64,000 nucleotides of DNA from an uncultured Candidatus Saccharibacteria bacterium (GCA_964350735.1 CAYGKO010000001.1:310578-374577); one strand, 5' to 3'. Shown: positions 30,116 to 46,461, counted from the first letter of the stretch. Notes: generated by a model not told the origin, from the letters alone. Made by a program: numbers and translations.

Positions 30116-30170
30116 CTATGTACCCATGCGATCTTAATCGCAATATTACTAGCCTAGAAAAGTAAATAAC

Positions 30171-30827: not shown

Positions 30828-30830
30828 TAT

Positions 30831-32552
30831 ATGAAATATATAGTAGTCATTGGTGTATTTCTTCTCCTTATCGGTGGGGTCTTCTGGTATACCAGTACAC
30901 CCAATATGATGGGAATGAACATGGACGGCATGATGATGGGACAAAACATCTCCAAAGAAGATAACTTATCAATCTTGCACGATGAGAATGTGTCTGAGGT
31001 CAAGCCAACTGAGATTGTTGAACTAAATGACGGCGACACGTTCGACCTCACCGCTTCAATCGTTAAACAAGAGGTTGGTAATCGAACCGTAAAACGTCTA
31101 GCATACAATGGTCAGATTCCTGGACCAATTCTCAAAGTAGAGAAAGGAGCTAATGTTACGGTTAACTTCACTAACAACATCGATATGGAGACCTCATTGC
31201 ACTCACACGGCCTTCGAGGTAACTGGGAAATGGATGGAGCTGTGCCGATTACTCCACCAGTAGGGGTTGGTGAAACCTTTAGCTATGAATTGGTATTTCC
31301 TGATACGGGCGTCTTCTGGTACCACCCACATGTTCGAGAAGACTACCAACAAGACATGGGACTCTACGGCAATATGGTGGTTGAGGAAGATGGCTACTGG
31401 AATGAAGTCGATCAAGAAGAGTACTTGATTATTGATGACATTCTCGAAGACGGTGAATACAGTCGAGAGGTAGTCACCAACACCCTGATGGGACGCTTTG
31501 GTGACCGACTGCTGATCAACGATCAAGAAGACTACAACCTGACCGTACAGCAAGGATCAATCACTCGGGTTGCCTTTACCAATGTGGCGAATACTCGCAC
31601 ATTCAAACTGAGCTTCCCAGGAGCACAAACTAAACTTGTTGGTGGCGACGCCGGTCGGATTGAGCAAGAAGTAATGATTGACGAACAGATTATTGGCACC
31701 TCAGAGCGCTACATCTTCGAACTCTATTACGACACACCTGGTACCTACCCAATTATGCACCGAGACCAAGAGATTGGTGCAGTGACGGTCGAGCCGTCTG
31801 GTATGAATCGTTTGGTCGCCTTTGAGACACTGCGAAGCAATGCGTCTGACTACGCAGACATCCGAAATCAAACATCTAGTCTACTGGCTAAGGCGCCAGA
31901 CAAGAACCTCCGTCTTGATATCGAGATGAAAGGTATGATGGGCGACATGATGATGAATGAACGTGGTATGGGTATGATGGATAACGATGAGATGGTAAAC
32001 CTGATGGGTATGGAAATGAATCGCCAGCAAGCCGTTGAGCATTGTGAAATGATGCCGAATATGGCTGGTTGTGAGCCGTTTGTTGGTGAAGCTGGAGACG
32101 ATATGACGGGAGGCATGATGGAAGAGGGAGAAGAAGCCGGACCACACGGCGAAGACGGTATTGAGTGGGAAGACGAAATGGCTATGATGAATCAGATGAG
32201 TACTGATGAAACTATTGAATGGGTTATTGAGGATATCGACACCGGTTTAGAAAACGGTGATATTGATTGGTCATTCCAAACTGGCGACTTAGTTAAAGTT
32301 CGTATCTACAATGATGAGAATGGGATGCATCCGATGCAACACCCAATTCACTTCCACGGACAGAAGTTTGTCATCTTAGCCAAAGATGGTGAGTTAAACG
32401 ATAACCTGCAGTGGAAGGACTCAGTACTAATCCCGACGGGAGAGACCTACGATCTATTGATTGAGATGAGCAATCCTGGTCAGTGGATGACACACTGTCA
32501 TATTGCTGAGCATCTTGAAGCAGGGATGATGTTCAACTTTGAGGTGAAGTAG
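30831..32552 (+). CDS. Multicopper oxidase (CopA/CueO-like) with a Met-rich copper-binding insert
   Basis: Copper ligand motifs HSHGL, HPHV and HCHIAEH, plus a MMGDMMMNERGMGMM Met-rich region. Confidence 0.85.
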   Translation: MKYIVVIGVFLLLIGGVFWYTSTPNMMGMNMDGMMMGQNISKEDNLSILHDENVSEVKPTEIVELNDGDTFDLTASIVKQEVGNRTVKRLAYNGQIPGPILKVEKGANVTVNFTNNIDMETSLHSHGLRGNWEMDGAVPITPPVGVGETFSYELVFPDTGVFWYHPHVREDYQQDMGLYGNMVVEEDGYWNEVDQEEYLIIDDILEDGEYSREVVTNTLMGRFGDRLLINDQEDYNLTVQQGSITRVAFTNVANTRTFKLSFPGAQTKLVGGDAGRIEQEVMIDEQIIGTSERYIFELYYDTPGTYPIMHRDQEIGAVTVEPSGMNRLVAFETLRSNASDYADIRNQTSSLLAKAPDKNLRLDIEMKGMMGDMMMNERGMGMMDNDEMVNLMGMEMNRQQAVEHCEMMPNMAGCEPFVGEAGDDMTGGMMEEGEEAGPHGEDGIEWEDEMAMMNQMSTDETIEWVIEDIDTGLENGDIDWSFQTGDLVKVRIYNDENGMHPMQHPIHFHGQKFVILAKDGELNDNLQWKDSVLIPTGETYDLLIEMSNPGQWMTHCHIAEHLEAGMMFNFEVK

Positions 32553-32629: not shown

Positions 32630-33262
32630 ATGTCAAATAGATGGGTAGAAAGTGTTAAAAAGAATCTCTTACCTCTGAGTAAAGAAAAAACCGACCTCAA
32701 CCAAGCATTGAGCGAGTGGTTTTATACTGGAGACACCTATGACCTTACTCGCCCTGAGGAAGATTGTGAATTGTGTGATCATCCTGGAATTAGATTTCAA
32801 TTTGAAATAAAAAATCAGCATACTAAAGAAGTTCTGCTAATTGGATCTGAATGTATATTACGATTCTCAATTTCAGCAATTGATGATGAAGGTAATGTAC
32901 TTGATCAAGTTTCCACTACCAAAAAAGTGCACCAAGATAGACGTAAACTTATATCTAACGCTAGAACAAAAAGAGTTATCACTAGCTTAGTAGATTTGTC
33001 ACAAAAAGATAAAGAGTTTGATGACATAAATAATTCAATTGAGTACTTTCAAGAGAGAGGAGCCTTTTCACCTAGACACCTGCTATTTCTATTATGGAGA
33101 ATGAAAAAGAGTGGCGTTTCATTTAACAAAACAGATTTTAAAATGACAATTAGAAGAAATAGAGAGAAAGATCAATTGTTAGCTATGAAGGACTGGGAAG
33201 TAAGAAAAATAAAGCCAGCCATGTCCGCCGCTCAACAAAAATGGTATCAAGAAAATTCATAG
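32630..33262 (+). CDS. Hypothetical protein with a possible Cys4 zinc-binding motif, adjacent to the recombinase
   Basis: CELCDH...GSECI. No other recognisable domain. Confidence 0.35.
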   Translation: MSNRWVESVKKNLLPLSKEKTDLNQALSEWFYTGDTYDLTRPEEDCELCDHPGIRFQFEIKNQHTKEVLLIGSECILRFSISAIDDEGNVLDQVSTTKKVHQDRRKLISNARTKRVITSLVDLSQKDKEFDDINNSIEYFQERGAFSPRHLLFLLWRMKKSGVSFNKTDFKMTIRRNREKDQLLAMKDWEVRKIKPAMSAAQQKWYQENS

Positions 33263-34555
33263 TCATTTTACTATTGATAGTAATTTATTTTTTAGTATTA
33301 ATTTGCTTTCTAAGCTTTCAAATAGACTTCTTTTTTCATTAATATCACCATCTTTTAAAACGAACTTAAAATAATTTTTGACATCTTTATCCGATACTTT
33401 GATTTCAGTACTTTTGCCTGACAGTGCTAACTGAAACTTCTTAAATCTAGTTACTTCAGCTTTTAGTTTAATCAGCACGGTATTTTCTTTTAATTTTATT
33501 GTATCCACTAAATCTTGCAGTTGTGTTATTAGCTCAGTTTCATTTAAGTATCCACTTTTGCAATTCTTATCCTTAGCTTTGGTGCAACCGTAATATATGT
33601 GAGTATTGAACTTTCCATTCTTCAATTTCTTATACTTTTCATCAGCACTTATGCCTGAACCACACAAGCCGCAAGTCATGAGCTTAGTGAACGCAAATTC
33701 TTTATCCGTCCGCGTCTTCAATTCGTTGCCTTTAAGTTGTGTCTGTACTTCGTCATATAACTCTTTAGTTACAATCGGCTCATGTTTTCCTTGATACCAC
33801 TGACCGCTACCTTTGGGGTATTCAAAACTTCCATAATAGAAAGTGTTATCTAAGATTTTGTATATGTTTCCAAGACTCAGATGTTTCTTTCCCGCATGAG
33901 TCCTAAAGTTAAGCTCGAACTTCAGCCAGTGATAGAGTTTGCGACCAGACCATTGCTCATACGCTACTTTCTCGAACATCTGTTTAATGACTGGAGCACG
34001 GTCTTCATCTATCAAGCATTCATTCTTTCGGTCCAGTCTACGTTCTTTGATATATCCAGTGGCAGCGTTAGTAGGCCACAGACCCAGTTCACATCTAGCT
34101 CTCAGCCCACGCTTTACATTGATGCCTCTGTTGTCATTCTCTAGTTTTGCTTGAGAACACAGAATCATCAGCAAGAACTTCTCGTTAGGAGAGTTACTAA
34201 ATGTCTGTCCATACGTACGAATTGAATGTAATTTTTGCTCATCCATCAAATCCACTACTGAGCCTAAGTCACCAGCATTACGACTTAACCTATCTGGTGC
34301 CCACGTTAATATTGCATTAAACTTTTCCTGTTTCACATCTCCTAACAATTCTTTAAATATCGGTCTATTCCCAGAATCCTTAGCAGACTTTGATTCTCGT
34401 CTGATATCAACTACTTCAAGATTCTCACGCTCTGCAATCTGTAACATTTCGTTAACTTGAGATTCAATCGACAACGCTTGTCGCTCATCACTCTCAGTAC
34501 TTTTTCTTGCATACAAACAGTACTTTAATTTCTCCTCAGTTACTCCTTCTATCAT
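33263..34555 (-). CDS. Large serine recombinase (resolvase/invertase catalytic domain + recombinase domain + zinc ribbon)
   Basis: YARKSTESDE...S catalytic region and the C-terminal CGLCGS...YYGC ribbon. Confidence 0.85.
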   Translation of the reverse strand: MIEGVTEEKLKYCLYARKSTESDERQALSIESQVNEMLQIAERENLEVVDIRRESKSAKDSGNRPIFKELLGDVKQEKFNAILTWAPDRLSRNAGDLGSVVDLMDEQKLHSIRTYGQTFSNSPNEKFLLMILCSQAKLENDNRGINVKRGLRARCELGLWPTNAATGYIKERRLDRKNECLIDEDRAPVIKQMFEKVAYEQWSGRKLYHWLKFELNFRTHAGKKHLSLGNIYKILDNTFYYGSFEYPKGSGQWYQGKHEPIVTKELYDEVQTQLKGNELKTRTDKEFAFTKLMTCGLCGSGISADEKYKKLKNGKFNTHIYYGCTKAKDKNCKSGYLNETELITQLQDLVDTIKLKENTVLIKLKAEVTRFKKFQLALSGKSTEIKVSDKDVKNYFKFVLKDGDINEKRSLFESLESKLILKNKLLSIVK

Positions 34556-34740
34556 GTATATATTAATGACAGACCAGTTTTTATTGCATAGCTATGCAAG
34601 CTAAATAAAACGTCACATACTCGCTTAGCAAAACTACCATTTAGCGATACAATCCCATTAATAGTAGTTTTCTGCTATTATGTTCAACACAACTGAATAC
34701 AAGGCCTAACCCTTTAGTTTCCTAGAGATATGGCCGACCA

Positions 34741-34881
34741 AACGCGATCAACGTAAAAACCCCGACATCAGGGGCGTTGATCGCGTTGCGTGGGGAAACT
34801 TGCGTAGGAACCTTCGGGTTCACCTTGGTGTTCGGGTTTTTGTGTACCTGAACATTTAATTACTCATAAAACGCGATCAAC
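34741..34881. promoter_or_regulatory. Three copies of AACGCGATCAAC(G) (two forming a 13-bp-stem cruciform) upstream of the Ltp-like gene: candidate operator, origin or att site
   Basis: aacgcgatcaacg (34741-34753) pairs with cgttgatcgcgtt (34775-34787), with a ccccgacatcagggg sub-hairpin in the loop. A third copy lies at 34868-34881, 5 bp before the ATG at 34886. Confidence 0.4.
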
Positions 34882-34885
34882 ATTT

Positions 34886-35644
34886 ATGGAAAAAAAAGAA
34901 ACTAAAATCACCCTCGGACTAATTGTCGGGTGGGTACTTGGAGTATTAGTAGGTATTGCTGGAGTGGGTCTGCTTTTCACCGAACCTATACCAGGAATAT
35001 TATTCATTCTGTTATCTTTGGTACTTTTACCTCCAGCTAATCGGATGATAAAAGAGAGATTTAATTTCTCACTCTCAGGCGGAGTAAAGGTAGTATTGGC
35101 AATCGTATTGTTTGTTATAGCTGGAGCGACTATGGATACTGAATCAGTTTCGGATGATAACCCTGTTGTTACTGACATACAGCAAGATACTCTTGAAGAA
35201 GTTGAAGCAAGTGATATGCCATCAAATGAAGTCGTCAGCGAGACTGAAGTAGCAGCGCAAGAACCTGTCTATATAGTGGATACACCAACTAACCAGCAAG
35301 CAGAAGAAAGTCCTGAAACTATTGTTGCGGCACCTGCGGTCGCCCAAGAACAGCCCACTCTGGGAGAAAGACAAGCTATCCGAGCAGCTCAAAACTATAT
35401 CGACTTTAAAGCCTTCTCAAGATCAGGTCTTGTTGAACAACTAGAATTTGAGGGATATTCAAGAACAGAAGCTGAATACGGTGTGTCGGGAATCACTGTC
35501 GATTGGAACGAGCAGGCTGCACTATCAGCTGCTAGCTACCTCGAATACACCAACTTCTCTCGTAGTGGTCTTATTGAACAGCTAGAATTTGAAGGATATA
35601 CGACAGCACAAGCTCAGTATGGAGCTACTGCTGTAGGGTATTAA
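34886..35644 (+). CDS. Ltp-like (host-cell-surface-exposed lipoprotein family) superinfection-exclusion-type membrane protein with two C-terminal Ltp repeats
   Basis: Two repeats: QAIRAAQNYIDFKAFSRSGLVEQLEFEGYSRTEAEYGV and QAALSAASYLEYTNFSRSGLIEQLEFEGYTTAQAQYG. N-terminal TM helices. Confidence 0.6.
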   Translation: MEKKETKITLGLIVGWVLGVLVGIAGVGLLFTEPIPGILFILLSLVLLPPANRMIKERFNFSLSGGVKVVLAIVLFVIAGATMDTESVSDDNPVVTDIQQDTLEEVEASDMPSNEVVSETEVAAQEPVYIVDTPTNQQAEESPETIVAAPAVAQEQPTLGERQAIRAAQNYIDFKAFSRSGLVEQLEFEGYSRTEAEYGVSGITVDWNEQAALSAASYLEYTNFSRSGLIEQLEFEGYTTAQAQYGATAVGY

Positions 35645-37248
35645 CATCTAGAGCTTTTTCGACTTTGTGGTGTATCTACGGTCTCAATCCGTTCTTTGGC
35701 TTCGGGAGTGAGACAATCAACATCTTGCAAGACATCGCGATAGTCGTGATACCAGCAGGTGTTGTCGTCCATTGATCCAGGCCCTAGAGACGCGATCAAG
35801 AAGGTACTTTCTTTAGTGAATTCTTCGACGATTTTGTGTATAAGGATTGAAAATGCGTCAGCTAGGTCGTCATGTTTTTCAACTCCAAAACCAATCATCT
35901 GCTCGATAAGATGTTCACAACCAGTATCAGGAAACAAGACAGTACCTTTTTGGATCATGGAAGACGTCAGAGCTAATCGAGTTCTTTTATCACTCTTTGG
36001 CTTAACTGATATCGCTCTCACTCCTTGTGAATCAAGCATCTGTGGCAGAGCGTCCTGGTATGCCACACTTTCCACAATTAGCTCGTCGGAACTACCATTC
36101 AAATGAATGTTGCTGTGCTGCTTCATCAGCTCTACTTGTTGTGGAAAGGTTAGTCGCTTGTTGATAAGATGAGGCTCGATAAAGATACGCAACGCTTCAT
36201 TGCGACCAAATATACGAGCGGTAACCATAGCAGTACAATCCGCGGTATCTTTTTGTGAGATAGCTAAATCAACGCCAGTGTATGTTGCTCGATACGCTTT
36301 ACTGGACCTCGGCGGCAGTTTGTCAGCATGGTAACAGCAGAGCCAGTCAGGATGAATAACCTGATCTTCATCTGGAATAATGTTGAGTAAGTATTCACGT
36401 TGCCACGCGATATCGTCACCAATTTTCTTTCGCTCCTTTTCAATAGAAGCCAGCGTTGGGAACTTTCCTGGCCAGGCTGATTTATTATCTTTAGTGATCA
36501 AGGCACAGGACATAAACGTGCCGTCTATTTCATTCTTTAAGGCTCGTTCTCGCAACCTCATAAGTAATGAGTCTTCATGAAGCAAGTTACCAACCACGAT
36601 CAAGCGGGTGTTTTGATCACCAGCCGGTATCACATCACCAGTGAGCCACTTGTGTGTTTTATTACGTCCCTCACGTGTTTTGGTGGAAGCTACATCTTCA
36701 ACGTCATCACAAATAAACAAGTCTGGTCGATGTTGATGGTGTCGCATCCCTCGGATACTTTGCTCTGACGAAGCAACAGTGATTCGAGCCTGAGTATTCG
36801 AGAACACAATCGAATGTGAACCCCATTCGTCTGAACTTTCACTAAATGGTCCAAGGTCATTTTTAAGCAACAAGTTATTCTCTAGCTCATTACGAATGTT
36901 CATCATATGTTGTTTGGCTTGTACTCGTGTCTGACAGAATATCACCACAAACTTCTTTTGTTGCTGACCAAGAATTGACCAGATAGGATAGGCGGTCGTA
37001 ATAATTGTTGATTTACCAGAGCCACGAAACGCCACAATGAATAGATTTTCATCAGGTTGATTTTCCACCTTTGCAATTAAATCTTTTTGGAAGGTAGCGG
37101 TTGGAAATAGAACGTAATGTGCGAAGTAGAAATGGAAGAAGTAGTTAAAACTACCCTGCATAACTTGTCGCCTGATCACCTTGTCTTTAGCAAGCGACTG
37201 GAACATCTCCTCAGGAATTGGATTTGGGTTATTGTTTTTCATCTTCAT
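35641..37248 (-). CDS. Phage terminase large subunit
   Basis: Walker A AFRGSGKST, with the ATPase then nuclease layout typical of TerL. Confidence 0.75.
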   Translation of the reverse strand: MKMKNNNPNPIPEEMFQSLAKDKVIRRQVMQGSFNYFFHFYFAHYVLFPTATFQKDLIAKVENQPDENLFIVAFRGSGKSTIITTAYPIWSILGQQQKKFVVIFCQTRVQAKQHMMNIRNELENNLLLKNDLGPFSESSDEWGSHSIVFSNTQARITVASSEQSIRGMRHHQHRPDLFICDDVEDVASTKTREGRNKTHKWLTGDVIPAGDQNTRLIVVGNLLHEDSLLMRLRERALKNEIDGTFMSCALITKDNKSAWPGKFPTLASIEKERKKIGDDIAWQREYLLNIIPDEDQVIHPDWLCCYHADKLPPRSSKAYRATYTGVDLAISQKDTADCTAMVTARIFGRNEALRIFIEPHLINKRLTFPQQVELMKQHSNIHLNGSSDELIVESVAYQDALPQMLDSQGVRAISVKPKSDKRTRLALTSSMIQKGTVLFPDTGCEHLIEQMIGFGVEKHDDLADAFSILIHKIVEEFTKESTFLIASLGPGSMDDNTCWYHDYRDVLQDVDCLTPEAKERIETVDTPQSRKSSRC

Positions 37249-37630
37249 GTTGTTTAGTTGGGATAATTTGTGCCATCTCTAATGCTTTACGGACAATTGC
37301 TTCTTGTTCAGGATTTAGCTCGTCAATGTCGTGCTTATTGGTTACTTCAAGCTTGTCTTTATAGGCTGGGTGTCGCTTGTTCAGCCAAAAGCGAACCGCA
37401 GAAAAGTTCTTTTCTTTAATGAGTTGCAGTAGTTGGTTTTCACTCATGTCGTTCACAAATGCCACACCGTCGGACAGGGCTTTGTCGAACTCTTTTTCAA
37501 AGTCTTTATCCTCTCGCTTCCAGCGGTAGACGGTATTGCGTGATACACCTGTCTTCTCACAAGCTACCTGCACAATTGGCACCTTCTTAAGCTCCTCCAG
37601 GAATTGCTTAGAGTATTTAGGCTTTTTCAT
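37229..37630 (-). CDS. Phage terminase small subunit-like HTH protein
   Basis: HTH (VACEKTGVSRNTVYRWK) directly upstream of and overlapping TerL. Confidence 0.45.
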   Translation of the reverse strand: MKKPKYSKQFLEELKKVPIVQVACEKTGVSRNTVYRWKREDKDFEKEFDKALSDGVAFVNDMSENQLLQLIKEKNFSAVRFWLNKRHPAYKDKLEVTNKHDIDELNPEQEAIVRKALEMAQIIPTKQHEDEKQ

Positions 37631-38900
37631 AGTAGTTTTTGATTACTTTAACTTTTTGATCAGTTAGTTTTTCATAACGCCTTCGCACCACTTCGCAAAA
37701 CACAGGGCTTTGTTCAATGGTATATACTCGTCGTCCAAGTGACTCAGCCGCAATCAAAGTACTACCTGAGCCAGCAAAGGAATCAAGAATAATGTCGCCT
37801 GGTTTGGTGCAACGTTTGATTGCTTTCTCGTGGAGTGACGGTGGTTTAGATGTTGGGTGCTCATACTCAGATGATTTCAATCTTTTAGCGCCCCATACGT
37901 TACTGAGGTCTTCAAGTAGTTGATTGCCAGTCCCAAGTTCTTTGTTTTGCACTTCGGTAGCATCCTGCGTCTGTTTGGATAGGTGCGGACTTCCTATGGT
38001 GCCGTATACACAAAATTCGATCACCTTGTTAAACGCAACCGTTGGTGTTGGTGATGCGTTATTCTTGAGCCAGACGTTCAGTCGACGGTTTTTAATACTG
38101 AGTTCGTTGTATAAGATTTGGAATACCCAGACCCAAGCCTCGTCGCACCAGTAGAAGAAGTGAGTGTCTTTCGTGGATACTGCAAGAGCTGCTTCAAGTG
38201 TCTGCTTGATAAAGGCTTTATATTGATCTGGTTTCTTGTCGTCATCAACCCTGCCACCATATGAGGCTTTGTTACCGACACCTTTGTCGTAGTCCAAATT
38301 TATGTTGTATGGTGGATCAGAGTATATGAAGCTAGTCTTATCTTGTCCGAATAATGCCTCAACTGCTTTACTGTCAGTACAATCGGAACAAAGCAATTTG
38401 TGCTTGCCAAGGATAAGCAAATCACCTGATTCGATATCTGTATCTTTGGCAGTTTCGACTGCTTTCTCTTCATCAAAGTCGTCATTTTCTGTACTTAGAT
38501 CCTCATCCCAAAATGAAGCTAGTTCAAGATCGTCAAAACCTGAGTCGGTGAGTAGACCGAGATCAAAGCTCTTTAAGGCTTCGAAATCCCAGTCACCGGT
38601 AACTTTGTTAGAGGTGATGAGATATTCTTCATATTCTTTTTTGGTGAGCTTGCGATTCGGCACGCGCACGTCAACCTCTTCATGACCACGGTCAAGGAGT
38701 TGCATCACTTTAAGACGTTGGTGCCCGGCTATCACTTTGTTGTCTGTATCAATCGCTGGGATCTCAACTAGATTAAACTTCTCCAGACTTTGCTTTAATT
38801 TTTTAAGTTGTATATCGCTCAGGGTACGAGGATTGCTCTCGTACGGGATTAAATCTTTGATGACACGGGTTTCGGTGTGCCAAGCTAGTTTTTTAGACAT
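37617..38900 (-). CDS. ParB-like nuclease domain fused to an N4/N6 DNA methyltransferase
   Basis: ParB N-terminal motif (GHQRL), SDPPYNI methyltransferase motif IV, and FAGSGST motif I. Confidence 0.8.
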   Translation of the reverse strand: MSKKLAWHTETRVIKDLIPYESNPRTLSDIQLKKLKQSLEKFNLVEIPAIDTDNKVIAGHQRLKVMQLLDRGHEEVDVRVPNRKLTKKEYEEYLITSNKVTGDWDFEALKSFDLGLLTDSGFDDLELASFWDEDLSTENDDFDEEKAVETAKDTDIESGDLLILGKHKLLCSDCTDSKAVEALFGQDKTSFIYSDPPYNINLDYDKGVGNKASYGGRVDDDKKPDQYKAFIKQTLEAALAVSTKDTHFFYWCDEAWVWVFQILYNELSIKNRRLNVWLKNNASPTPTVAFNKVIEFCVYGTIGSPHLSKQTQDATEVQNKELGTGNQLLEDLSNVWGAKRLKSSEYEHPTSKPPSLHEKAIKRCTKPGDIILDSFAGSGSTLIAAESLGRRVYTIEQSPVFCEVVRRRYEKLTDQKVKVIKNYYEKA

Positions 38901-39065
38901 TTTATTAAGTCTTACTTAAATAAAATGTGTAGATATAGAAAAAGCCTACGTCCACACACGAAATAAAGAGCGGTTAAGCTATCTATTTCTTGCGCGGAGT
39001 AGGCACGGTGGGTGAGACTATGCGTTACTCTTCTTTTTACTACGCAATATAGTATTTATATTAAA

Positions 39066-39479
39066 TCAAGTTGTCTTCTCTTTGGCAAGTCGACGTAGTA
39101 GACGCTTGCCACTTTTGCTCGCGAGGAATTGTTGTGTATCAGGACCAAATTTTACCGGTACTCCTTCTTTTGGTATTTGTAGGACTACCTTGTATCCGTT
39201 CGATTGTTCTTGTTGCACATACTCAACGAACGACGGATCCTTTTGTAGGTTTTCTGCGAAGACTGACCAGTCCTTGCCAATATCTCCAGTCGTTGGAGAG
39301 TAGATACGTCCAGGTTCATCTTTACGAAATGCTTTTGCTACTTTACGACCGACAGATTTTAATGGTGGATGCTTAGTGGTATGAACCAGAAAATCAGTGA
39401 TCTCGATCACTTTATATTTCTGGCCATGCACTGGTTTGTGCGGCTTGAGTTGCAATTCTGTTACAAACTCTTCTGCCAT
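39066..39479 (-). CDS. Hypothetical protein
   Basis: 137-aa ORF with reasonable coding potential. No recognised motif. Confidence 0.35.
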   Translation of the reverse strand: MAEEFVTELQLKPHKPVHGQKYKVIEITDFLVHTTKHPPLKSVGRKVAKAFRKDEPGRIYSPTTGDIGKDWSVFAENLQKDPSFVEYVQQEQSNGYKVVLQIPKEGVPVKFGPDTQQFLASKSGKRLLRRLAKEKTT

Positions 39480-39703
39480 AACTACTTTCGCTTTCGGGTA
39501 CTTGGTCGCTGTGAAAGGGCACTACCAGCTGCAGTCTTTGATTTGCTTGAGGTACGTCCGTCACGGAGTACACTACTCGACGCTTTGGCGGCTCGTGAAC
39601 TCGTTACTTTGCTTCGGTTGCTTTTGGGCATGATGAAGTTTTTTAGTGGATAATGACTCTATTGTATTCCTGCATTTTGGAAGTGTCAAGAGTGTAAAAT
39701 AAG

Positions 39704-39753
39704 TTGACTAAATAGTGTGTAATTTAGGCTGAAATATGGTATAATAAGGGGGT
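39704..39753 (+). promoter_or_regulatory. Putative promoter with an extended -10 (TGgTATAAT) and a strong RBS for the LexA-like gene
   Basis: TTGACT at 39704-39709, TGGTATAAT at 39737-39745, AAGGGGG immediately before the ATG at 39754. Confidence 0.4.
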
Positions 39754-40398
39754 ATGCACGAACTACAATCAAAACTATACAACCTGGCCAAGCACGAAGA
39801 CCTCGGTAAATTGAGTCTTCGCCAGATAGCCAAGATGATCGGTGCGGATAATAAGCCTCAGATAGCAAAGCATCACCTACTACAACTCGATAAAATTGGT
39901 CTGTTACAGGTGAATCTTGATGAGGGTGTGGTGAAGCCTACAAAGCGTGGCTTTAACATGCCTGCCGCTAAACGTTTATTTTATTCTCTGCCAATTGTCG
40001 GCATGGCCAATTGTGGCCCCGCTAATGTTTTTGCTGAAGAGCGGATTGAGGGCTACCTCAAAGTGTCAGCGAAAATGCTACCGCACCGTAAGAGTGACTT
40101 ATTTGTTCTAGTGGCTGATGGTCCGTCGATGAATAAGGCTGAGGTGCGTGACGGAGTGACGATTGAAGATGGTGATTATGTAGTAGTCGATAGCGCAGAC
40201 AGAACCCCTACTAACGGAGATGTTGTTGTTGCGGTGATTGAGGGGCTAGCAACGATTAAACGGTACCGAAAAGATACTAAGAATAATCGAGTATTGCTTG
40301 AAGCAGATTCAACTGAAAAGTATCACCCGATTGTTATTGCTGAGGATGACGAGTTCGTAATTAGCGGAATAGTAGTAGATGTGATTAAGAAAAATTAG
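39754..40398 (+). CDS. LexA-like transcriptional repressor (winged-helix DNA-binding domain + S24 autopeptidase)
   Basis: The N-terminal HTH resembles the LexA DNA-binding domain. The C-terminal S24 domain has the Ser (GPSMNKA) and Lys (ATIKRY) dyad. Confidence 0.8.
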   Translation: MHELQSKLYNLAKHEDLGKLSLRQIAKMIGADNKPQIAKHHLLQLDKIGLLQVNLDEGVVKPTKRGFNMPAAKRLFYSLPIVGMANCGPANVFAEERIEGYLKVSAKMLPHRKSDLFVLVADGPSMNKAEVRDGVTIEDGDYVVVDSADRTPTNGDVVVAVIEGLATIKRYRKDTKNNRVLLEADSTEKYHPIVIAEDDEFVISGIVVDVIKKN

Positions 40399-40407
40399 AA
40401 CCGGAAT

Positions 40408-41403
40408 ATGAATGAAATAAATACTGCATTGGATAAATTACTTAAAGTGAATATAAATATCGGTCAAACAGCACGCTCACAAGGATCTATTAGTCATAAC
40501 TATATTCGCGATGTTTTAAAAGGTAAGAGCAGTACTAATCCACTCTTTCCACGTCTGGTGGATGGAGATTTTTTAAGTGGTTCGTATGCTCGAGGGACAA
40601 AGTTGAAGCCGCTTGATGACATTGACGTTATGGTGGTGATAGATGGTGCCGGATTACATGTCGTTAACAGTGGGTTGGTGCAAAACATTGGAGTTAGAGG
40701 ATCAGAGAAACACGATAATCCAATTTTGCAACACATTGGAGTTGATTCACTTCTAAGTTCTGCCAAAGTGATGTCACTTTTTCAAAAAGCGTTGAGTGAA
40801 ACCCACCCCAACTCAAAGATTCGCAATGATGAGCAGGCGGTAAACGTATGGTTAGAATCATATGGTCTTGGCATAGATGTTGTGCCATGTTTCCATCTTA
40901 TTCCACAAAGTGGCACGAGAGATTATTATTTTATTCCTGAAGGAAACGGCGGTACTGGCTGGAAGACAACAAATCCAAAAATTGATGAAGAGATATCAAG
41001 TACTCTTCACGAACGTCACGATAAAAAGCTAAAGAAAGTAATTCGTTTGGTTAAGTATTGGAACACTGTAAGTAATAACGGCAATCTCAAGTCGTATCAT
41101 ATTGAAACGCTTGCATGGCACATATTCGATAAGCGTACAGAAGTTATTCGTTCGCTAGAAGATGGATTGATAGCATTCTTTGTAGGTGCAGACGAGTTCC
41201 TTGCTATTGCGTGCGCTGACAAAACAGCTCTAGGAGGTCCGGTCGACCACTATCTTTCTGAAACTGCTCGCGCTAATTCTCGTCAGAAAGTTCGCGAAGT
41301 GTTTGGATTATTGTCTGATACGTATGTTACTCACGAGAATGACCCAGCCTTAAGAAAACGTGTCTGGCAAACGATATTTTCAAATAAACTTTCATTTGCA
41401 TGA
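40408..41403 (+). CDS. cGAS/DncV-like nucleotidyltransferase (CD-NTase / SMODS-type), candidate CBASS-like signal synthase
   Basis: Pol-beta NTase motif GSYARGTKLKPLDDIDVMVV (GS...DxD), a third acidic residue in GIDVVPCF, and a helical C-terminal domain with RLVKYWN. Confidence 0.6.
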   Translation: MNEINTALDKLLKVNINIGQTARSQGSISHNYIRDVLKGKSSTNPLFPRLVDGDFLSGSYARGTKLKPLDDIDVMVVIDGAGLHVVNSGLVQNIGVRGSEKHDNPILQHIGVDSLLSSAKVMSLFQKALSETHPNSKIRNDEQAVNVWLESYGLGIDVVPCFHLIPQSGTRDYYFIPEGNGGTGWKTTNPKIDEEISSTLHERHDKKLKKVIRLVKYWNTVSNNGNLKSYHIETLAWHIFDKRTEVIRSLEDGLIAFFVGADEFLAIACADKTALGGPVDHYLSETARANSRQKVREVFGLLSDTYVTHENDPALRKRVWQTIFSNKLSFA

Positions 41404-42248
41404 ATAATGATTTACTGAAAAAGGTGGTTGAATTGGAAAGTTTGGCCAAGCTTCTGTTTGATAAGGCAGTCTCTCTACGGTACTCAGCGTTGGGAATCGA
41501 GGTTCTGGCGGGGTTGCTAGCAGTCGCTATTGCCTTATTACAACCGTCTAAGACGGTGCTGTTTTGGTTTGCGGTAATTGGGTTCGTAATGCTGACTGTT
41601 TCGTATGTGCTGAAGGTATATTTCTCTATTATTTACGAACGGGCTGAAACCATGCGACGGCAAGCAGTACTGGCCAATGCTTTGGGTTGGGACATCCAGA
41701 AGGTTCAATTCAGTGAGTGGAGGCAATTAGCTGGAAAGAATCTCTTGAAGAAGTTAGAGAGTGCAACGCTTGACGAGGATTACTATGCAACAAAACAAGA
41801 ATCAGGCGCTTTACGATTACTTGAGATGACACAAGAATCAGCTTTTTGGACACGGCATCTATATAATAGTATCAAGACGTATCTATGGATAATTTTCGGT
41901 ATTGCGACCTTACTGTTCCTTACTGTTCTCACAGTAACATCCTCATACACACTCAACGGCAATCTTTCATTGCAAATTGCTTACGTTGTGTACCTACTAA
42001 TGCCGCTTATCTTAACTATTGATGTATTGGGTTGGGCAATCAAGCTACACATTGTCGCTGGTTCTATTAAAGAAATCGAATGTGACCTGGAACGACTAAA
42101 GGAAAATCATCAGGTGAATGAAGTTAACGTATTGAGACTGGTGTCAGAATACAACTGCCAAGTCATCCAGGGTTTCCCAGTCCCTAGCTGGTTTTTCAGC
42201 ATGCACCATGACCACACAGCTGTTCTTTGGAAAAAAAACAATGAGTAG
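41400..42248 (+). CDS. Multi-pass membrane protein translationally coupled to the NTase: candidate membrane-disrupting effector (SLATT-like)
   Basis: ATGA start/stop overlap with the NTase gene. Two pairs of TM helices separated by a soluble segment. No enzymatic motif. Confidence 0.45.
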   Translation: MNNDLLKKVVELESLAKLLFDKAVSLRYSALGIEVLAGLLAVAIALLQPSKTVLFWFAVIGFVMLTVSYVLKVYFSIIYERAETMRRQAVLANALGWDIQKVQFSEWRQLAGKNLLKKLESATLDEDYYATKQESGALRLLEMTQESAFWTRHLYNSIKTYLWIIFGIATLLFLTVLTVTSSYTLNGNLSLQIAYVVYLLMPLILTIDVLGWAIKLHIVAGSIKEIECDLERLKENHQVNEVNVLRLVSEYNCQVIQGFPVPSWFFSMHHDHTAVLWKKNNE

Positions 42249-42669
42249 CCCGTTTTCGATTGGTGAAATATGTGCAGTTATTTTTTCACAGACTTCGCAC
42301 ACTATTTATGCAACTGTATTAGAGTTGGTTATTTTTCTCTGGCCGTGGTATTGGCTCCTTATCGTACTTGGTCTTGGTGGTTGGATTGCTTTTGAAATTA
42401 CGACTAGAAACGGCACTATTCATCACAACTCAGAAAATGGTTTTTCACCAGTGTTTAATAGTTTTGTAGGGAGTTGTACATATACTGGATTACAAACATT
42501 TTTTTTCTTCATACTGACGTCGCTGTTTGGTTCAGGTGTCTATTGTTTCGTCTGGCCATTTGCAATACATATCTTGATATTTCTATCGACGGGTAAGTTA
42601 CTACACGTTATTGGATTTTGGCCGAGACTTGAGCGTCCAAACAATAGACGTCGGAATAGGAGGCGGTAA
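42241..42669 (+). CDS. Small membrane protein with an Arg-rich C-terminal tail, overlapping the preceding gene (ATGAGTAG)
   Basis: Two or three TM helices and a C-terminal RPNNRRRNRRR. The start is trimmed to the ATG at 42241, which overlaps the upstream stop. Confidence 0.4.
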   Translation: MSSPFSIGEICAVIFSQTSHTIYATVLELVIFLWPWYWLLIVLGLGGWIAFEITTRNGTIHHNSENGFSPVFNSFVGSCTYTGLQTFFFFILTSLFGSGVYCFVWPFAIHILIFLSTGKLLHVIGFWPRLERPNNRRRNRRR

Positions 42670-42731
42670 AAGTTACAGTTACATGTAACTTTAGATCTTT
42701 GATCTGTGTAACTTTTGTAACGTTTTCTTGC

Positions 42732-42830
42732 GCACGAGACACTATCGAATTGAATTCTGAATGTAAGCTAATCGGTCAAGCCCTGCTTGACCGACCACGG
42801 TTCTAGCTCGAGACAGCCCGCAGTTGACGA
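42732..42830 (+). repeat. Complex ~100-bp repeat (att-like), direct repeat of 49543-49690
   Basis: gcacgagacactatcg...ctga...gtaagctaatcggtcaagcc...cacggttct...ctcgagacagcccgcag shows about 80% identity to the 49543 copy. Confidence 0.6.
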
Positions 42831-44275
42831 ATTGAGGCATTTTTAGGGGTATTTGCGAGTACTTGATACTCGTCTTTAAACTGAAAGCTAGCCACATTTT
42901 CGTTCTCAATCGTAAGGTTCGAAAGCAACTTTTCTAGCAGTTTACGTTTAGATTCATCTTTTGCTTCGATGTACTCATTTGAGGCTGTATTTCCTTGTTT
43001 AAATACGTTTTTGATTTGTTCGAAAGTAGAATCTGAGAGTGGTCCTTTTTTATCAATTTCTTTGAGTTGATTTTTGAGAGCGGTGCGGTCGTTTTCGATT
43101 TGTTTCATCTTTTCCTCAAAGAGAGGTTTTTTAATAAGAAGTGATGTATATCCATCAACTAAGGTAGATTCTTTCGTGTCGAGCAATTTTAGCTCTTCTA
43201 GGATGCTTTCTCGTGCAGAGTCAGTGTAGGTGTCAGTTGAAGTGTTTTTCTGTCTGTAGGCTTCGGCAGAGAGCTTGATAGTTTCTTCATCAATATGAAG
43301 TTCTTCAAAGAGTTTTCCGATCAGTGCGTCCATTTTCTCGGACCGCAGATACTTGCGGGGAGCAGAGCAGATTTTCTTGCCGTTGGTGCAGTAATAGTAC
43401 TGATGTCCTTTCTTCGTATCTCCTGTATAGGTACAGCCACAGTTGGCACAAGTAACAAAGCCACGAGCAGAGTAGAAATGTTTTTCTTTCTTAGGGTGGT
43501 TCCGATTATTGAAGACGTTTTGAACCGACTCGTATAATTTACTGCTGACAATAGCTTTGTGTTTCCCTTGGTAGACAGTACCTCTAAATTCCATTAGTCC
43601 GGTGTAGAAGATTTGGTTGAGGATTTTGTGGATTTGAGATTTATACACCTTGTTACCAGCAGGGGTACGCATTCCCTCGTTGTACATAATGTCTACTAGG
43701 TCAGTGAGAGTGTACGCACCGGTAGCGTAGAGGTCGAAGATACGTTTTACATACTTGGCGCGTTTGGGTACGACTTTCACTAGTCTGTCTTCTTTGTCAT
43801 TACGATAGCCATAGGGAGCAATGTTCGGCCATTCTCCACGTTCTAGTTTTGCTCTATTGCCACGCTTCACGTTTACACTCAGATCACGGAGATATTGAGT
43901 AGCCATAGCTTGTTCAATACTCATGATGAGTACGTTGTCATGAGGAGAGTAGGTTTTCTCGAATGTTGTTATGCATTGAATATTGCCTTTTTGAAGTAGC
44001 CACTGAATTTGTCCTCCGTCTACTGGATTACGGGTGAGACGGTCGATTTTCCAGCAAAGAATAGCATCAGCTTCACCAGCTAGAATTTTAGTCATCATCT
44101 GATTGAAGACAGGGCGACCAGGAGCTTTGGCAGACATGCTCTCAGTCATGATTTCTACAATCTCAATACCCTGAGCTTCAGCGAGTCGTTTGAGTTCATT
44201 TTCTTGTGACTCTAAAGAGAGGACCTGTCTGTCTTCAGTATCAGTTGATTTTCGAGTGTAGAGAATATATTTCAT
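42803..44275 (-). CDS. Large serine recombinase
   Basis: YTRKSTDTEDRQVLSLESQ catalytic N-terminus, recombinase domain, and a Cys-rich zinc ribbon (CANCGC...YYYC). Confidence 0.85.
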   Translation of the reverse strand: MKYILYTRKSTDTEDRQVLSLESQENELKRLAEAQGIEIVEIMTESMSAKAPGRPVFNQMMTKILAGEADAILCWKIDRLTRNPVDGGQIQWLLQKGNIQCITTFEKTYSPHDNVLIMSIEQAMATQYLRDLSVNVKRGNRAKLERGEWPNIAPYGYRNDKEDRLVKVVPKRAKYVKRIFDLYATGAYTLTDLVDIMYNEGMRTPAGNKVYKSQIHKILNQIFYTGLMEFRGTVYQGKHKAIVSSKLYESVQNVFNNRNHPKKEKHFYSARGFVTCANCGCTYTGDTKKGHQYYYCTNGKKICSAPRKYLRSEKMDALIGKLFEELHIDEETIKLSAEAYRQKNTSTDTYTDSARESILEELKLLDTKESTLVDGYTSLLIKKPLFEEKMKQIENDRTALKNQLKEIDKKGPLSDSTFEQIKNVFKQGNTASNEYIEAKDESKRKLLEKLLSNLTIENENVASFQFKDEYQVLANTPKNASIRQLRAVSS

Positions 44276-44357
44276 AACTGAATGTTTATCTGATAATACG
44301 TCTTATTTCTTCATTCTTCAAATATGACTAATTAGTCAAGGGACTGGGTCGCTTGGG

Positions 44358-45158
44358 CTACGCCCACGCGCGACCCCAGTCCTCAAATAAGTCATCATCA
44401 TATGTTGTACCTTTGATAGCTTCGATGAGCTTTTTTGCATCGGTGAAGTACATGTATTCACCGGGAAGTACATACACATATGGATTCATGTTTTTGACAC
44501 GTTTCTTACTCATACCAGATTTATTCCATTGACGTAGTCGTGCTTTTTGCCAGCGACGAAAGATTCGGAAGTTGCGTCTAATAATCTTGATGTCTTCTTT
44601 TGTTCCGACAATGATAGCGATGTTTCTGTGTAGAAGTGATCGACTATAGCCCCAGAACTGACCACAATCGTGATAAAAGTAGGGAACGGTCTTTTGAGCT
44701 TCTTTGGTTAAATACGAAGCGAGATAGCGCTTGAAGGCTTCGGTCTTACGAATAGGAGATATATGCGCTCCGTGTTCACGATGGCGTTTGTCTTTTGATC
44801 CTACGATCTCATACCACATTCGTTTAAGTTCATCTTCGTTGATTTCTTTATCGGCAAGAATATGGAAGTGACACGCACCTCGTTCTTGAAATTCCATGAA
44901 CCAAAACCAGCGGATACCTCTGTAGTTAAAACGGAGCATCATCTTGTGCAGATGGGACTTTACGATTTTTCCATCCTTTGGGAATTTTCGAGGATATGTG
45001 AGCCCGATTTCGTGCGTCATCTCGTCTGGTAAATTCCTCAGAATATGGCGTGCGCGCTTGATCGAACCGTACGAAAGCCTTTTGATTTGGCCCCTTTCTT
45101 TCCGATTCTGGTCGGTTAATAAATTCTTCGACTGATTGTTCTTGTTTCTTTTTTCCAT
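44358..45158 (-). CDS. Rolling-circle replication initiator (HUH endonuclease, phiX gpA-like double-Tyr type). The start is uncertain, with an internal ATG near 45020.
   Basis: HUH motif ACHFHIL and motif 3 YLASYLTK, which resembles phiX174 gpA YVAKYVNK. Confidence 0.55.
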   Translation of the reverse strand: MEKRNKNNQSKNLLTDQNRKERGQIKRLSYGSIKRARHILRNLPDEMTHEIGLTYPRKFPKDGKIVKSHLHKMMLRFNYRGIRWFWFMEFQERGACHFHILADKEINEDELKRMWYEIVGSKDKRHREHGAHISPIRKTEAFKRYLASYLTKEAQKTVPYFYHDCGQFWGYSRSLLHRNIAIIVGTKEDIKIIRRNFRIFRRWQKARLRQWNKSGMSKKRVKNMNPYVYVLPGEYMYFTDAKKLIEAIKGTTYDDDLFEDWGRAWA

Positions 45159-45553
45159 AAGGTATTTGTGTGCAAGGTCCTATCTTCAAATCGAATGGCC
45201 ACATCTCAATTTTTAAGGTCTCGTCTTTATGCCAACGAGGCCCTTGGATTAAGGGGTGCAATATGTCGATTGGTTTTAGCTTCCCAGCGTCAGCTAAGAA
45301 GTATCGGACTTGCTTCATTTTTTATTTTGTACGAGCTCACTGAACACTTCGTAGAAGTCAGCTAGAGCGTTTAGGTGCTCGATAGCTGTTTCATCACTAA
45401 TTTCCTCACCGTGTCTGATGAGTACATATAGCTTCATGCGTTTGATAAGCTCGTGGTTAAAACTCATAACCTACGCATTGTCGAGTCGCCATGTGTCGGA
45501 AAAGGAGTACAATGGAATAGTGATGGCTAAAAACCTCGCTATCTTTACAGAGT

Positions 45554-46459
45554 ATGAAAACTTTTAAGACTAAAAAACCCTCATTCTTCAAGAAAGGAAC
45601 GCTGGTTTTTTCTGACTCTGGTCATAAGCTAGTGAGAGACGGCAAATATTACAGGTGCTCTAAAAACACAAACGGAGAGTGCGATCTGCATAAACCAATA
45701 TCGCTAGAAGCGTTCGAGACAAAATTCTCTCGCTTAGCTACTAAGCTTTACTCTGAACGATTGGACTTTGATTCAATTTTCAAAAATCTCTTTCGCGACC
45801 ATTTCTGGGATATCGTTTTTGGTATAGATGAACGCCTGCTGGGGAAAGAGGAAGTGGCGGATTCTACTATCGAACTGCTAAAGAAGGATGCAGGAAATGG
45901 TAAGAAACCGTCTCGATCGTTAGTAAAGGATTTTGAAGAGAACTACATAGAATCACTTAAAGCTGATTATCCGGTAATGTTGCTGGGTTATGCAGTAGGC
46001 ATGGTGCGTGTTTGTTCTATCGAACAAAAGAAATCTGAAATGGGGAGAAGCTTAGCTCATTTCTCTAAAAAGATTTATATCGGAAATGATGGAGAGATTG
46101 AGGTTATAGAATTAGAGCGTTGGGCTTGGTACGTATTTAATGCCGTGATCAAGAAAGCTTATCCTGAGTATCTCAATGAACGAGAGGATTTAAAATTTAT
46201 GAATGAAGAAGACGTTCTGCATACGATGAGTATCACAAAAGCATGCGAAGCGTTTGGTGAAACTGAATTCAATGATGCTCTTGGTGAAAATTTCATTGCT
46301 TGTATAGGCTGGATTAAATTCCTCAAGGAATCTTTCACAGGAATGTTTGATGACGGTCAGGAGGGTGAAATGAACTCCCAGTTTCCGGAACTGATAGAAA
46401 AAATGCAGAATGACCCAGCGCTAGGGATTATGATGAGAGTTAGTGCTATAACAAAATAA
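45554..46459 (+). CDS. Hypothetical protein; first gene of a coupled pair
   Basis: 301-aa ORF. Its stop is 3 nt before the next ATG. Confidence 0.4.
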   Translation: MKTFKTKKPSFFKKGTLVFSDSGHKLVRDGKYYRCSKNTNGECDLHKPISLEAFETKFSRLATKLYSERLDFDSIFKNLFRDHFWDIVFGIDERLLGKEEVADSTIELLKKDAGNGKKPSRSLVKDFEENYIESLKADYPVMLLGYAVGMVRVCSIEQKKSEMGRSLAHFSKKIYIGNDGEIEVIELERWAWYVFNAVIKKAYPEYLNEREDLKFMNEEDVLHTMSITKACEAFGETEFNDALGENFIACIGWIKFLKESFTGMFDDGQEGEMNSQFPELIEKMQNDPALGIMMRVSAITK

Positions 46460-46461
46460 TT

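Follow-up and report, generated by a model that had tools for sequence, protein, structure and literature searches.

A capsid-less, terminase-encoding cargo island at a tRNA-Ser gene of a Saccharibacteria bacterium and its relatives in Patescibacteria

Introduction

The Patescibacteria (candidate phyla radiation) account for a large share of bacterial diversity and have tiny genomes, and little is known about their gene exchange and phage resistance. A 64-kb stretch of DNA from an uncultured Candidatus Saccharibacteria bacterium (GCA_964350735.1, CAYGKO010000001.1:310578-374577), called the window here, raises a question of mechanism, since an island within it has both terminase genes, TerS and TerL, but neither a portal, a capsid nor a replication module. 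What kind of element is this, and how could it move? An initial annotation had described about 8 kb at 34560-42830 as a satellite of the phage-inducible chromosomal island (PICI) type or as a decayed prophage. We found that these 8 kb are the conserved core of a larger mobile island (16960-42823, about 25.9 kb) that is inserted at a tRNA gene. We favour the reading, with a probability of about one half, that the locus is a helper-dependent, satellite-like integrative island of a Patescibacteria-specific family that lies outside the described satellite families.

The terminase genes are intact and lack virion genes

The open reading frames (ORFs) of the window were analysed with the profile libraries Pfam, PHROGs and PADLOC, RNAs with Rfam and tRNA genes with ARAGORN. 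From left to right, the ORF map of 16871-49695 shows tRNA-Ser, a palindrome, copper and metal cargo, an ORF of unknown function, a recombinase, the LOOT RNA with an Ltp gene, TerL, TerS, a methylase, an ORF called u137, an S24 repressor, a cyclic oligonucleotide-based antiphage signalling system (CBASS) with a membrane ORF and, up to 42823, a non-coding end block. All genes listed in the initial annotation (TerL, a TerS-like protein, the ParB-methylase, Ltp, the repressor and a CBASS-like operon) were recovered intact at the positions assigned to them. The recombinase, the tRNA attachment site, the 16-kb metal cargo, the end block, LOOT and a second, neighbouring element come in addition.

TerL is encoded on the minus strand at 35641-37248 and belongs to the Terminase_6 (headful) type (phrog_38, E 5e-72). 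In an alignment of 24 relatives the Walker A motif AFRGSGKST, the Walker B motif CDDVED and the nuclease aspartates were invariant. Judged by these catalytic motifs, TerL is intact and no pseudogene, a point that the initial annotation had singled out for checking. The gene for a TerS-like helix-turn-helix (HTH) protein (37229-37630, minus strand) overlaps both flanking genes. Its best match was phrog_4044 (3e-10), PHROG families of small terminase subunits were hit at 3e-10 to 6e-5, and the match to Sf6_terminase was weak. The next gene upstream (37617-38900, minus strand) encodes a ParB-N domain fused to an N6/N4 DNA methyltransferase (PF01555, 1e-29; phrog_498, 1e-82; ParB-like phrog_620, 6e-25). 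The first gene of the packaging operon, u137 (39066-39479, minus strand), encodes a core protein of 137 amino acids to which no function is assigned. It has 97 homologues, and the few with a source name are from Patescibacteria. Its AlphaFold2 model is confident (predicted local distance difference test 82.9), and no fold or sequence match was found in PDB or BFVD.

For comparison with other genomes, all 1690 ORFs from 90 sequences were clustered and the families were counted per 89 loci. Capsid, portal, protease, tail and lysis families had no match in any ORF of 17-51 kb with Pfam and PHROGs. As the initial annotation had stated, there is no capsid, portal or tail gene, here for the entire 64-kb window, and no structural family recurred in the 89 loci. 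Likewise, no replication module (primase, helicase or Rep) was found among the ORFs of 16960-42823 with Pfam and PHROGs or in the recurrent clusters tested.

An autonomous virus with unrecognisable structural proteins, or an element exported in vesicles, would also appear without virion genes in such searches. Profile libraries cover the proteins of Patescibacteria poorly, and u137 and the clusters c6, c8, c19, c28 and c31 have no detectable family. PHROG scans of the recurrent clusters c6, c19, c28 and c31 gave nothing informative, and neither did those of the alternative first-position genes c8, c43, c51, c59, c103 and c114. However, a set of capsid, portal and tail proteins would require about 8-15 conserved genes, while u137 (137 aa, 38 loci) is the sole unassigned ORF that is conserved in the family. 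In addition, the core and recognisable cargo take up the full length of bounded elements of 12-19 kb. We consider such a virus or vesicle element very unlikely.

The packaging core recurs across Patescibacteria

A TerL scan of species-representative genomes, one genome per species, yielded 473 TerL-encoding stretches, and 80 of them were kept with 10-kb flanks. The window proteins were then searched against 82 loci to count the core genes. About 80 loci share one conserved string, in which the S24 repressor gene stands on one side and a small ORF, the ParB-methylase, TerS, TerL, variable cargo and a large serine recombinase follow on the other. The segment 33263-40398 of the window matches this gene order as found in the loci L002-L092. 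TerS lies directly upstream of TerL in 81 of the 82 loci, the ParB-methylase is present in 78 and a large serine recombinase of 52-76% identity lies downstream of TerL in 73-74. The recombinase is nearly always on the strand of the core (76 of 81 copies). The S24 repressor adjoins the core in 44-52 loci, and u137 was found in 37-38. Beyond the six core families no gene family occurred in more than 15 of the 89 loci, so the core is not accompanied by any conserved module for structure or replication.

More than 3600 homologues of TerL were found. The best 120 are at least 58% identical, and those of them with a source name are nearly all from metagenome-assembled genomes (MAGs) of Patescibacteria; many lie on contigs of 0.1-1.2 Mb. 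Clustering at 50% identity gave 425 clusters at E<=1e-30. In a collection of 50,697 phage records the best TerL matches reached only 22-35% identity, and a nucleotide search of 33.0-45.5 kb against the same records gave no match. IMG/VR, with 2.9 million contigs, contained only 7 relatives. When these were compared with the window, as the initial annotation had proposed for metagenomic phage contigs sharing the TerL, they had the architecture of the window core, no structural genes and no sign of circularity.

Three MAGs carry two family members on different contigs (L005/L028, L026/L051 and L036/L052), and in L037 two members stand in tandem. Full-text searches of the literature, most of them directed at the host group, gave no description of such an element in Patescibacteria, and the family is not described in PMC5737381, PMC8550312 or PMC12455944. 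This agrees with the remark in the initial annotation that none was established for this kind of host. We have high confidence in the family and its architecture, and the family appears to be a widespread, so far undescribed one of terminase-bearing cargo islands of Patescibacteria.

These counts also bear on the proposed decayed prophage that has retained packaging and defence genes. Phage-type genes without structural genes are what such a remnant would leave, and in L008 the TerL gene is indeed split. However, neither structural or lysis modules nor irregular remnants were observed in the window, and the gene set is regular, not randomly eroded. The same minimal set, with the same order and the same ends, is found in about 80 loci of different species, the catalytic residues are invariant, and the non-coding block, LOOT and the leader of the operon are kept. 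In distant relatives, TerL proteins of 49%, 38% and 36% identity again lie behind ParB_N plus N6_N4_Mtase and TerS, in L093 and L094 also with a serine recombinase, and never next to a portal gene. Since gene set, order and motifs are shared by about 80 loci and the context of TerL is kept down to 36% identity, independent decay is effectively excluded. The prophage proposal was therefore dropped, and we give it almost no credence.

Some observations on single carriers are added here. The TerL of L008 (10853-11539 and upstream) is split into two ORFs of 284 and 228 aa, which is real decay inside the family, unlike the intact copy in the window. Omnitrophota, Bdellovibrionales or Gammaproteobacteria appear as labels of some carrier MAGs, probably because of errors in binning or labelling. 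L069 is from the Gracilibacteria, for which an alternative genetic code is reported, and its TerL is open under the standard code.

The serine recombinase and the tRNA gene define the island

The recombinase SerRec1 is encoded at 33263-34555 on the minus strand and has the domains Resolvase, Recombinase and Zn_ribbon_recom (phrog_95, 1e-60). In the family the recombinases group by the tRNA gene that is targeted (identity 0.746 versus 0.633, permutation p<0.0005), and this grouping is much stronger for the recombinase than for TerL or the methylase. In the tRNA-Glu group, for example, the recombinases are 74-80% identical and TerL only 60%. Since its sequence tracks the tRNA target, the recombinase is the integrase of the island.

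The attachment site is the 3' end of a tRNA-Ser gene with the anticodon ACT (16871-16959, plus strand; detected by ARAGORN and, with 57.9 bits, by the Rfam tRNA model). Likewise, at least 25 other loci have a gene for tRNA-Gln, -Glu, -Asn, -Ser, -His, -Lys or -Trp beyond the variable cargo, and the 3' end of this gene points towards the element. In the window, a 37-bp direct repeat at 16944-16980 (plus strand) consists of the last 16 nt of the tRNA-Ser and the palindrome-like motif GAGCTAGCACGAGACA. The distal copy at 49027-49063 (plus strand), a tRNA-Ser 3' fragment with the palindrome, is identical at 36 of 37 positions, so that the two copies bracket 16944-49063. The tRNA 3' end with a GCTAGCACGAGA-type motif thus stands at one boundary and its repeat beyond the end block. 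Including the window, nine loci have direct repeats of 15-37 bp that link the tRNA 3' end to a position just outside the block. The others are L012, L021 (29 bp, perfect), L025, L027, L038, L041, L042 and L045, and the repeats differ in how far they reach into the palindrome.

Whichever tRNA is used, the palindrome-like (T)CGTGCTAGCACGAGA follows directly 3' in most of the repeat-bearing loci. With at most one mismatch, the motif GCTAGCWCGAGA has four matches at three places of the window: two at 16961 and 16967, which overlap on opposite strands, one at 42802, which is the end of the block, and one at 49050. Four matches were reached by none of 100 shuffles. In other loci this motif is found 3' of tRNA-His, -Gln, -Lys, -Ser and -Asn. 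The boundary of the island on the recombinase side is the tRNA gene and not the recombinase stop codon. The end given in the initial annotation (42830) coincides with the sharp end of the element at 42823; its start cut off the recombinase and everything else up to the tRNA-Ser at 16959.

The opposite end is formed by a conserved non-coding block of 155 nt (42668-42823, plus strand) beyond the repressor arm. A profile search with nhmmer found it in 65 of 90 sources, and in the loci fetched by TerL its orientation beyond the S24 arm is constant. Conservation stops sharply at the outer end, after the terminal TCTAGCTCGAGACAGCCCGCAG. In the window the block further contains the inverted repeat GTTACA-N6-TGTAAC, the pair GTAAC-N4-GTAAC and GCACGAGAC. 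The pair reads GTCAC-N4-GTCAC in most other loci, and CGAGAC boxes are also fixed. A structured RNA was considered for the block and rejected: RNAalifold gave -0.1 kcal/mol, one of nine predicted pairs covaried, in one sequence, and there was no Rfam match. Without RNA structure or covariation, the block is a DNA-level site. The operator-like repeat GTTACA-N6-TGTAAC was found only in the block and is absent from the control region of repressor and operon. The recombinase end was also searched for the terminal motif in inverted form, as expected of a classical attP half-site; none was found.

The attachment sites are relevant to another possibility, a domesticated or split system like the gene transfer agents, which would keep the packaging module here and have its genes for head and tail at other places of the genome. 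In its favour, TerL is very strongly conserved, with at least 58% identity across classes of Patescibacteria, and its clade is distinct from the phage records searched. However, the islands have attachment-type repeats, their presence varies among related genomes, several copies per genome occur at different tRNA genes, and each brings its own repressor and integrase. These features are typical of a selfish mobile element and not of a fixed host function, and such a system appears improbable to us.

Two arrangements at the junctions differ from that of the window. In L060 (12020-13650) the block of recombinase, LOOT and SNase has an inverted orientation with respect to TerL. L003, the closest relative in GTDB, has a full tRNA-Ser(TGA) directly at the block end (4666-4891) and not on the recombinase side. 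A near-palindromic crossover site could permit inversion besides excision.

Three slots hold defence and metal-resistance cargo

Variable genes are inserted at three slots of the family and include CBASS, restriction-modification, reverse transcriptases, Thoeris, Ltp and copper resistance. Slot A of the window (40408-42669, plus strand) contains a CBASS and an ORF for a membrane protein of 153 aa. The cyclase (SMODS) is encoded at 40408-41403 and the effector with four transmembrane (TM) segments at 41400-42248, both on the plus strand; the PADLOC matches were 1.9e-54 and 2.7e-25. With a CD-NTase cyclase next to a TM effector, and without Cap2/Cap3 or HORMA/TRIP13, the operon that had been called CBASS-like is a type I CBASS. 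It is flanked by the S24 repressor gene and the 153-aa ORF, which had no match. L036 has the same pair in the same slot; elsewhere the slot is occupied by CBASS-Cap15, a caspase, ThsA or 8xMP.

Slot B encodes an Ltp-repeat membrane protein of the superinfection-exclusion type (34886-35644, plus strand; phrog_15667, 7.7e-34). The two C-terminal Ltp repeats noted initially were confirmed by PF07553 (1.6e-24), and its cluster, c12, occupies slot B in 11 loci. The translation of 252 aa has N-terminal hydrophobic helices and not a single cysteine, hence no lipobox. Unlike a lipoprotein, the protein is therefore fixed in the membrane by its transmembrane helices.

Slot C (17072-32552, plus strand, about 16 kb) carries copper and metal resistance genes and envelope genes. 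Pfam identified DsbA-like, DUF3105, DUF305, M23 peptidase, P-type ATPase, PAP2, ZIP, CDF, CsoR, MauE-like, DUF411 and multicopper oxidase families. Downstream of the recombinase in other loci, the ATPase was found in 14, CsoR in 8 and the multicopper oxidase in 5, and the closest relatives L090 and L092 also have metal-gene families in slot C. No other recombinase or attachment-like motif was present between 16981 and 33262. Because the families recur in the same slot, no recombinase or attachment motif lies in between and the repeat lies beyond them, we count the metal genes as cargo of the island. Between slot C and the recombinase, a 210-aa ORF (32630-33262, plus strand) abuts the recombinase stop. 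It has no assigned function, no match in Pfam or PADLOC and a weak one to phrog_27072, and it does not recur in other loci.

The LOOT RNA (Rfam RF03000) lies at 34703-34822 on the plus strand, 5' of the Ltp gene, and scored 72.9 bits against a gathering threshold of 46.4. It was above this threshold in all seven other loci tested (61.8-86.5 bits). A purpose-built covariance model detected it in 42 of 89 sources, among them L003, L004, L009, L031, L055, L058, L061 and 34 further ones, nearly always adjoining the serine recombinase gene. It is located between the slot B cargo and the recombinase start, or just 3' of the recombinase stop, and in the inspected loci it precedes a gene for a small secreted or membrane protein (Ltp-like, DUF4352 or SNase). 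This suggests a cis-regulatory leader or a cassette-associated RNA. In the literature searched there was no text on the orphan LOOT RNA beyond its listing; the family now provides it with a genomic home and a testable role.

The position of the cargo can be read in a different way. In Staphylococcus, pac-type prophages and PICIs mediate lateral transduction in the terS-to-terL direction. If the island were an in-situ packaging platform of this type, headful packaging would start from a pac site in the integrated element and fill phage capsids in the terS-to-terL direction. What is mobilised would then not be the whole excised element but the recombinase together with the cargo slot downstream and the neighbouring chromosome. 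PMC12829572 reports phage- and PICI-mediated lateral transduction of defence systems. Restriction-modification and copper cargo does pile up downstream of TerL and the recombinase in this direction, and the lack of a replication module is also in line with packaging in situ. The defined ends, the direct repeats, the target-tracking recombinase, a mini-derivative and tandem arrays favour movement as an excised unit, however, and we regard the platform as unlikely.

The dominance of defence systems in the cargo raises the further question whether the terminase is repurposed. It might cut or mis-package the DNA of invaders or serve in other DNA processing, and the island might move by another route such as natural transformation. 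Satellites are known to interfere with the packaging of their helpers, Patescibacteria rely on type IV pili and competence, and the window contains pilus genes. However, a tightly coupled, repressor-controlled operon that combines TerS and a methylase with a TerL whose ATPase and nuclease are intact is the standard set-up for self-packaging, and interference and transfer are not mutually exclusive. We see little probability in a terminase that has been diverted from packaging.

The packaging operon is probably controlled by a repressor and a structured leader

The repressor gene (39754-40398, plus strand) encodes a predicted self-cleaving protein of the S24 (LexA/CI-like) type (PF00717, 1.5e-20). 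It diverges from the operon u137-methylase-TerS-TerL at a control region of 274 bp (39480-39753). The best sigma-70-like site of 32.5-43 kb, TTGACA-17-TACAAT (39689..39661, minus strand), lies in this region and points into the operon; it is a match to the consensus only. Six relatives (L007, L009, L021, L035, L049 and L070) have ImmA/IrrE (Peptidase_M78) at the S24 position. Four of the six also have an XRE HTH partner, and five lack S24. The exchange of S24 for ImmA/XRE is a regulatory swap like that of temperate phages and of integrative and conjugative elements.

A structured leader is located at 38894-39004 on the minus strand, between u137 and the methylase gene. A hairpin with a U-run (38939-39004) is followed by a second hairpin (38894-38931) that buries the methylase start codon. 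Across the family the first gene and the methylase gene are mostly separated by about 150-190 nt, with a long hairpin and then a U-run in between. Compensatory changes were observed in 12 of 15 pairs, and 91.8% of the cells were paired, compared to 28-51% in slid controls. The covariation was 0.434 against at most 0.141 in the controls and was reached by none of 500 shuffles. The window copy has a minimum free energy of -49.1 kcal/mol (z = -5.65), and no Rfam family matched 38894-39004. From its conserved pairing the leader looks like a conditional terminator that guards the packaging genes, and it is a candidate attenuator or antitermination target. The u137 protein may be the factor that acts on it.

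A helper-dependent satellite is the favoured reading

Taken together, the features of the island are compatible with the following cycle. The serine recombinase would insert the element at the tRNA 3' end and excise it. In the resting state the S24 repressor, or the ImmA/XRE pair in some relatives, would silence the leftward operon. DNA damage or phage attack would lead to cleavage of the repressor and to synthesis of u137, and transcription would then read through the terminator-like leader into the methylase, TerS, TerL and recombinase genes. The methylase may mark the element DNA, and TerS and TerL would recognise and cut it and pump it into the procapsids of a co-resident or infecting helper phage. 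The packaged element would spread its cargo, here CBASS, Ltp and copper resistance, and would probably also interfere with the helper. Packaging into borrowed capsids is an inference, and we put the odds of a helper-dependent step of this kind at even. Prophages of about 44 kb have been reported in MAGs of Patescibacteria, including nzgw467, which also carries the family member L049 (PMC12455944). Candidate helpers therefore exist in the phylum.

Several points weigh against this reading. There is no known helper phage, nor any direct sign of an excised, circular or encapsidated element. Concatemers, which terminases normally require, would not be supplied by a core that lacks a replication module. 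TerL would also need to fit a foreign portal, a contact that is usually specific, and among known satellites those with a TerL gene have genes for a portal and a capsid as well. The place of the copper cargo inside the mobile unit is based on repeat positions and recurrence, not on an exact empty site. The comparison loci are mostly MAGs. The relatives in IMG/VR are also few, although the elements may just not be called viral.

How does the island compare with known satellites? Like the classical PICIs (SaPIs, EcCICFT073), it is an integrated island in the range of 10-26 kb that has flanking attachment repeats and an integrase. It also has a master repressor gene that diverges from an operon ending in packaging genes, its own TerS-like protein and accessory and defence cargo, and it lacks capsid, tail and lysis genes. 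However, the usual PICI integrase is of the tyrosine type, whereas the large serine recombinase found here does not lie at the very end of the island. Classical PICIs possess a replication module of primase/helicase or Rep plus an origin, which was not found here, and use the TerL of the helper, whereas the island encodes an intact TerL. The ParB-methylase fusion is another difference, as are the host phylum and the S24 self-cleaving repressor in place of the Stl or AlpA logic. The island is not a classical PICI, since it has no replication module and its own TerL. The PICI-type satellite of the initial annotation thus holds for the satellite-like character, a virion-less set of packaging and defence genes under a cleavable repressor, but not for membership of the PICIs.

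The capsid-forming PICIs (cf-PICIs) encode hnh-terS-terL together with capsid, protease, portal and head connectors. They resemble the island in that both TerS and TerL are encoded and that their TerL forms deep clades apart from phage TerL. They differ by the capsid, protease, portal, connectors and HNH, none of which was detected here. If the island is packaged in borrowed capsids, it would represent a new satellite strategy between the classical PICIs, with TerS only, and the cf-PICIs, with the whole head.

The individual parts are of phage type. Temperate siphoviruses of Firmicutes and Actinobacteria combine large serine integrases with a ParB-methylase/TerS/TerL packaging head, and the methylase-TerS-TerL trio, the serine integrase and an S24/CI-type switch are found in such phages as well as here. 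In the phages, TerL is followed by portal and capsid, whereas in all loci examined here it is followed by cargo and integrase.

Two further groups can be compared. Tycheposons of marine cyanobacteria, as reported by Hackl et al. 2023, are tRNA-targeting cargo islands with niche-adaptive genes that accumulate in tandem at hot spots. Large serine recombinases are used by some of them, and links to capsids or vesicles are suspected. They share tRNA targeting, tandem arrays and adaptive cargo with the island; they are defined by replication helicase/primase modules and are not known to have a TerL/TerS/methylase core. The staphylococcal cassettes (SCCmec) and the cis-mobilisable elements (CIMEs) use large serine recombinases, accrete in tandem at one attachment site and have direct repeats of 15-40 bp. 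They also give rise to non-autonomous derivatives that consist of ends only, comparable to the mini-element of L098 and to 49027-49695 of the window. They differ in their targets, which are orfX and fda and not tRNA genes, and are not known to have a terminase or a repressor-controlled packaging operon.

More tentatively, and at somewhat below even odds, the family may be an undescribed, phylum-wide class of terminase-encoding, capsid-less islands that represents a new satellite class or a transduction platform. This wider proposal would include a deep TerL clade of its own, tRNA-targeting serine integrases, LOOT with the attenuator-like leader and non-autonomous mini-derivatives. Defence systems and genes for metal resistance would then have in this family a principal vehicle between these ultra-small, host-dependent bacteria. 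With its 473 places and a cargo of CBASS, Thoeris, restriction-modification, reverse transcriptases, superinfection exclusion and copper resistance, one element family could explain much of the gene traffic in Patescibacteria. Its compact tRNA-specific serine integrases with defined sites could also aid genetics in a phylum where tools are scarce.

A second element and a miniature or remnant unit adjoin the island

A second element of 6.2 kb (42824-49026) starts exactly at the outer end of the block. It encodes a second large serine recombinase of 490 aa (42803-44275, minus strand), a rolling-circle Rep (44358-45158, minus strand) and, up to 48787, three ORFs without assigned function, the last of which has an RNAP alpha-CTD-like domain. 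The last six codons of this recombinase are encoded by the terminal motif of the block, and in L024, L033, L036 and L043 longer recombinases overlap the outer end likewise. This suggests that the second element is a hitchhiker that targets the end block. The only database match of the Rep was a 3-kb contig named 'Inoviridae sp.' (28.5% identity, E 5e-10), and the genes of the second element do not recur with the TerL core.

Beyond it, a miniature or remnant unit (49064-49695, plus strand) comprises an ORF of 147 aa (49098-49541) and a degenerate end block (49541-49695). Its layout is the same as that of a 1-kb miniature at tRNA-Ser(GCT) in L098 (15146-16230 in reverse-complement coordinates). 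There, the tRNA gene is followed by the palindrome, two small ORFs, half a block, a second tRNA fragment and again the palindrome. The L098 miniature and that of the window (49027-49695) look like non-autonomous derivatives with the ends of the family and could be mobilisable in trans.

The remaining window, 1-16 kb and 51-64 kb, consists of host genes, with FtsH, MacB/HlyD, RecG, malic enzyme, RecQ, a two-component system and type IV pilus genes. RecG shares 83-86% identity with proteins named 'Patescibacteria group bacterium', which places the host in the Patescibacteria. The RecG proteins of L098 and L100 are 90% identical to that of the window, and L100 is syntenic with 3.5-15.1 kb and 53.2-58.5 kb. 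Only about 4.7 kb separate the syntenic parts in L100. They comprise the tRNA-Ser(GCT) region and about 2.8 kb of unrelated genes, and neither the palindrome nor a TerL island is present at this site.

The tRNA-Ser genes at this position are themselves variable. In the window, a tRNA-Ser(GCT) lies at 16400-16488, and a tRNA-Ser-like pseudogene at about 16718-16853 separates it from the unusual ACT copy. The tRNA-Ser(ACT) is also the junction tRNA in L022, L026 and L058. Since L098 and L100 have only the tRNA-Ser(GCT) at the site, the element may have introduced or reshaped the ACT copy. A segment of about 150 nt is repeated at 16494-16648 and 48870-49026 of the window and occurs in L092 (4083-4273), L098 and L100. 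Within it are the hairpin GTAACAGTCCGGGGGACTGTTAC and GGGATTCGAAAAG, which reads as the 3' fragment of a tRNA on the minus strand, and the distal copy of the segment (48870-49041) ends in a tRNA-Ser-like acceptor strand. In several related genomes this segment flanks the insertion hot spot.

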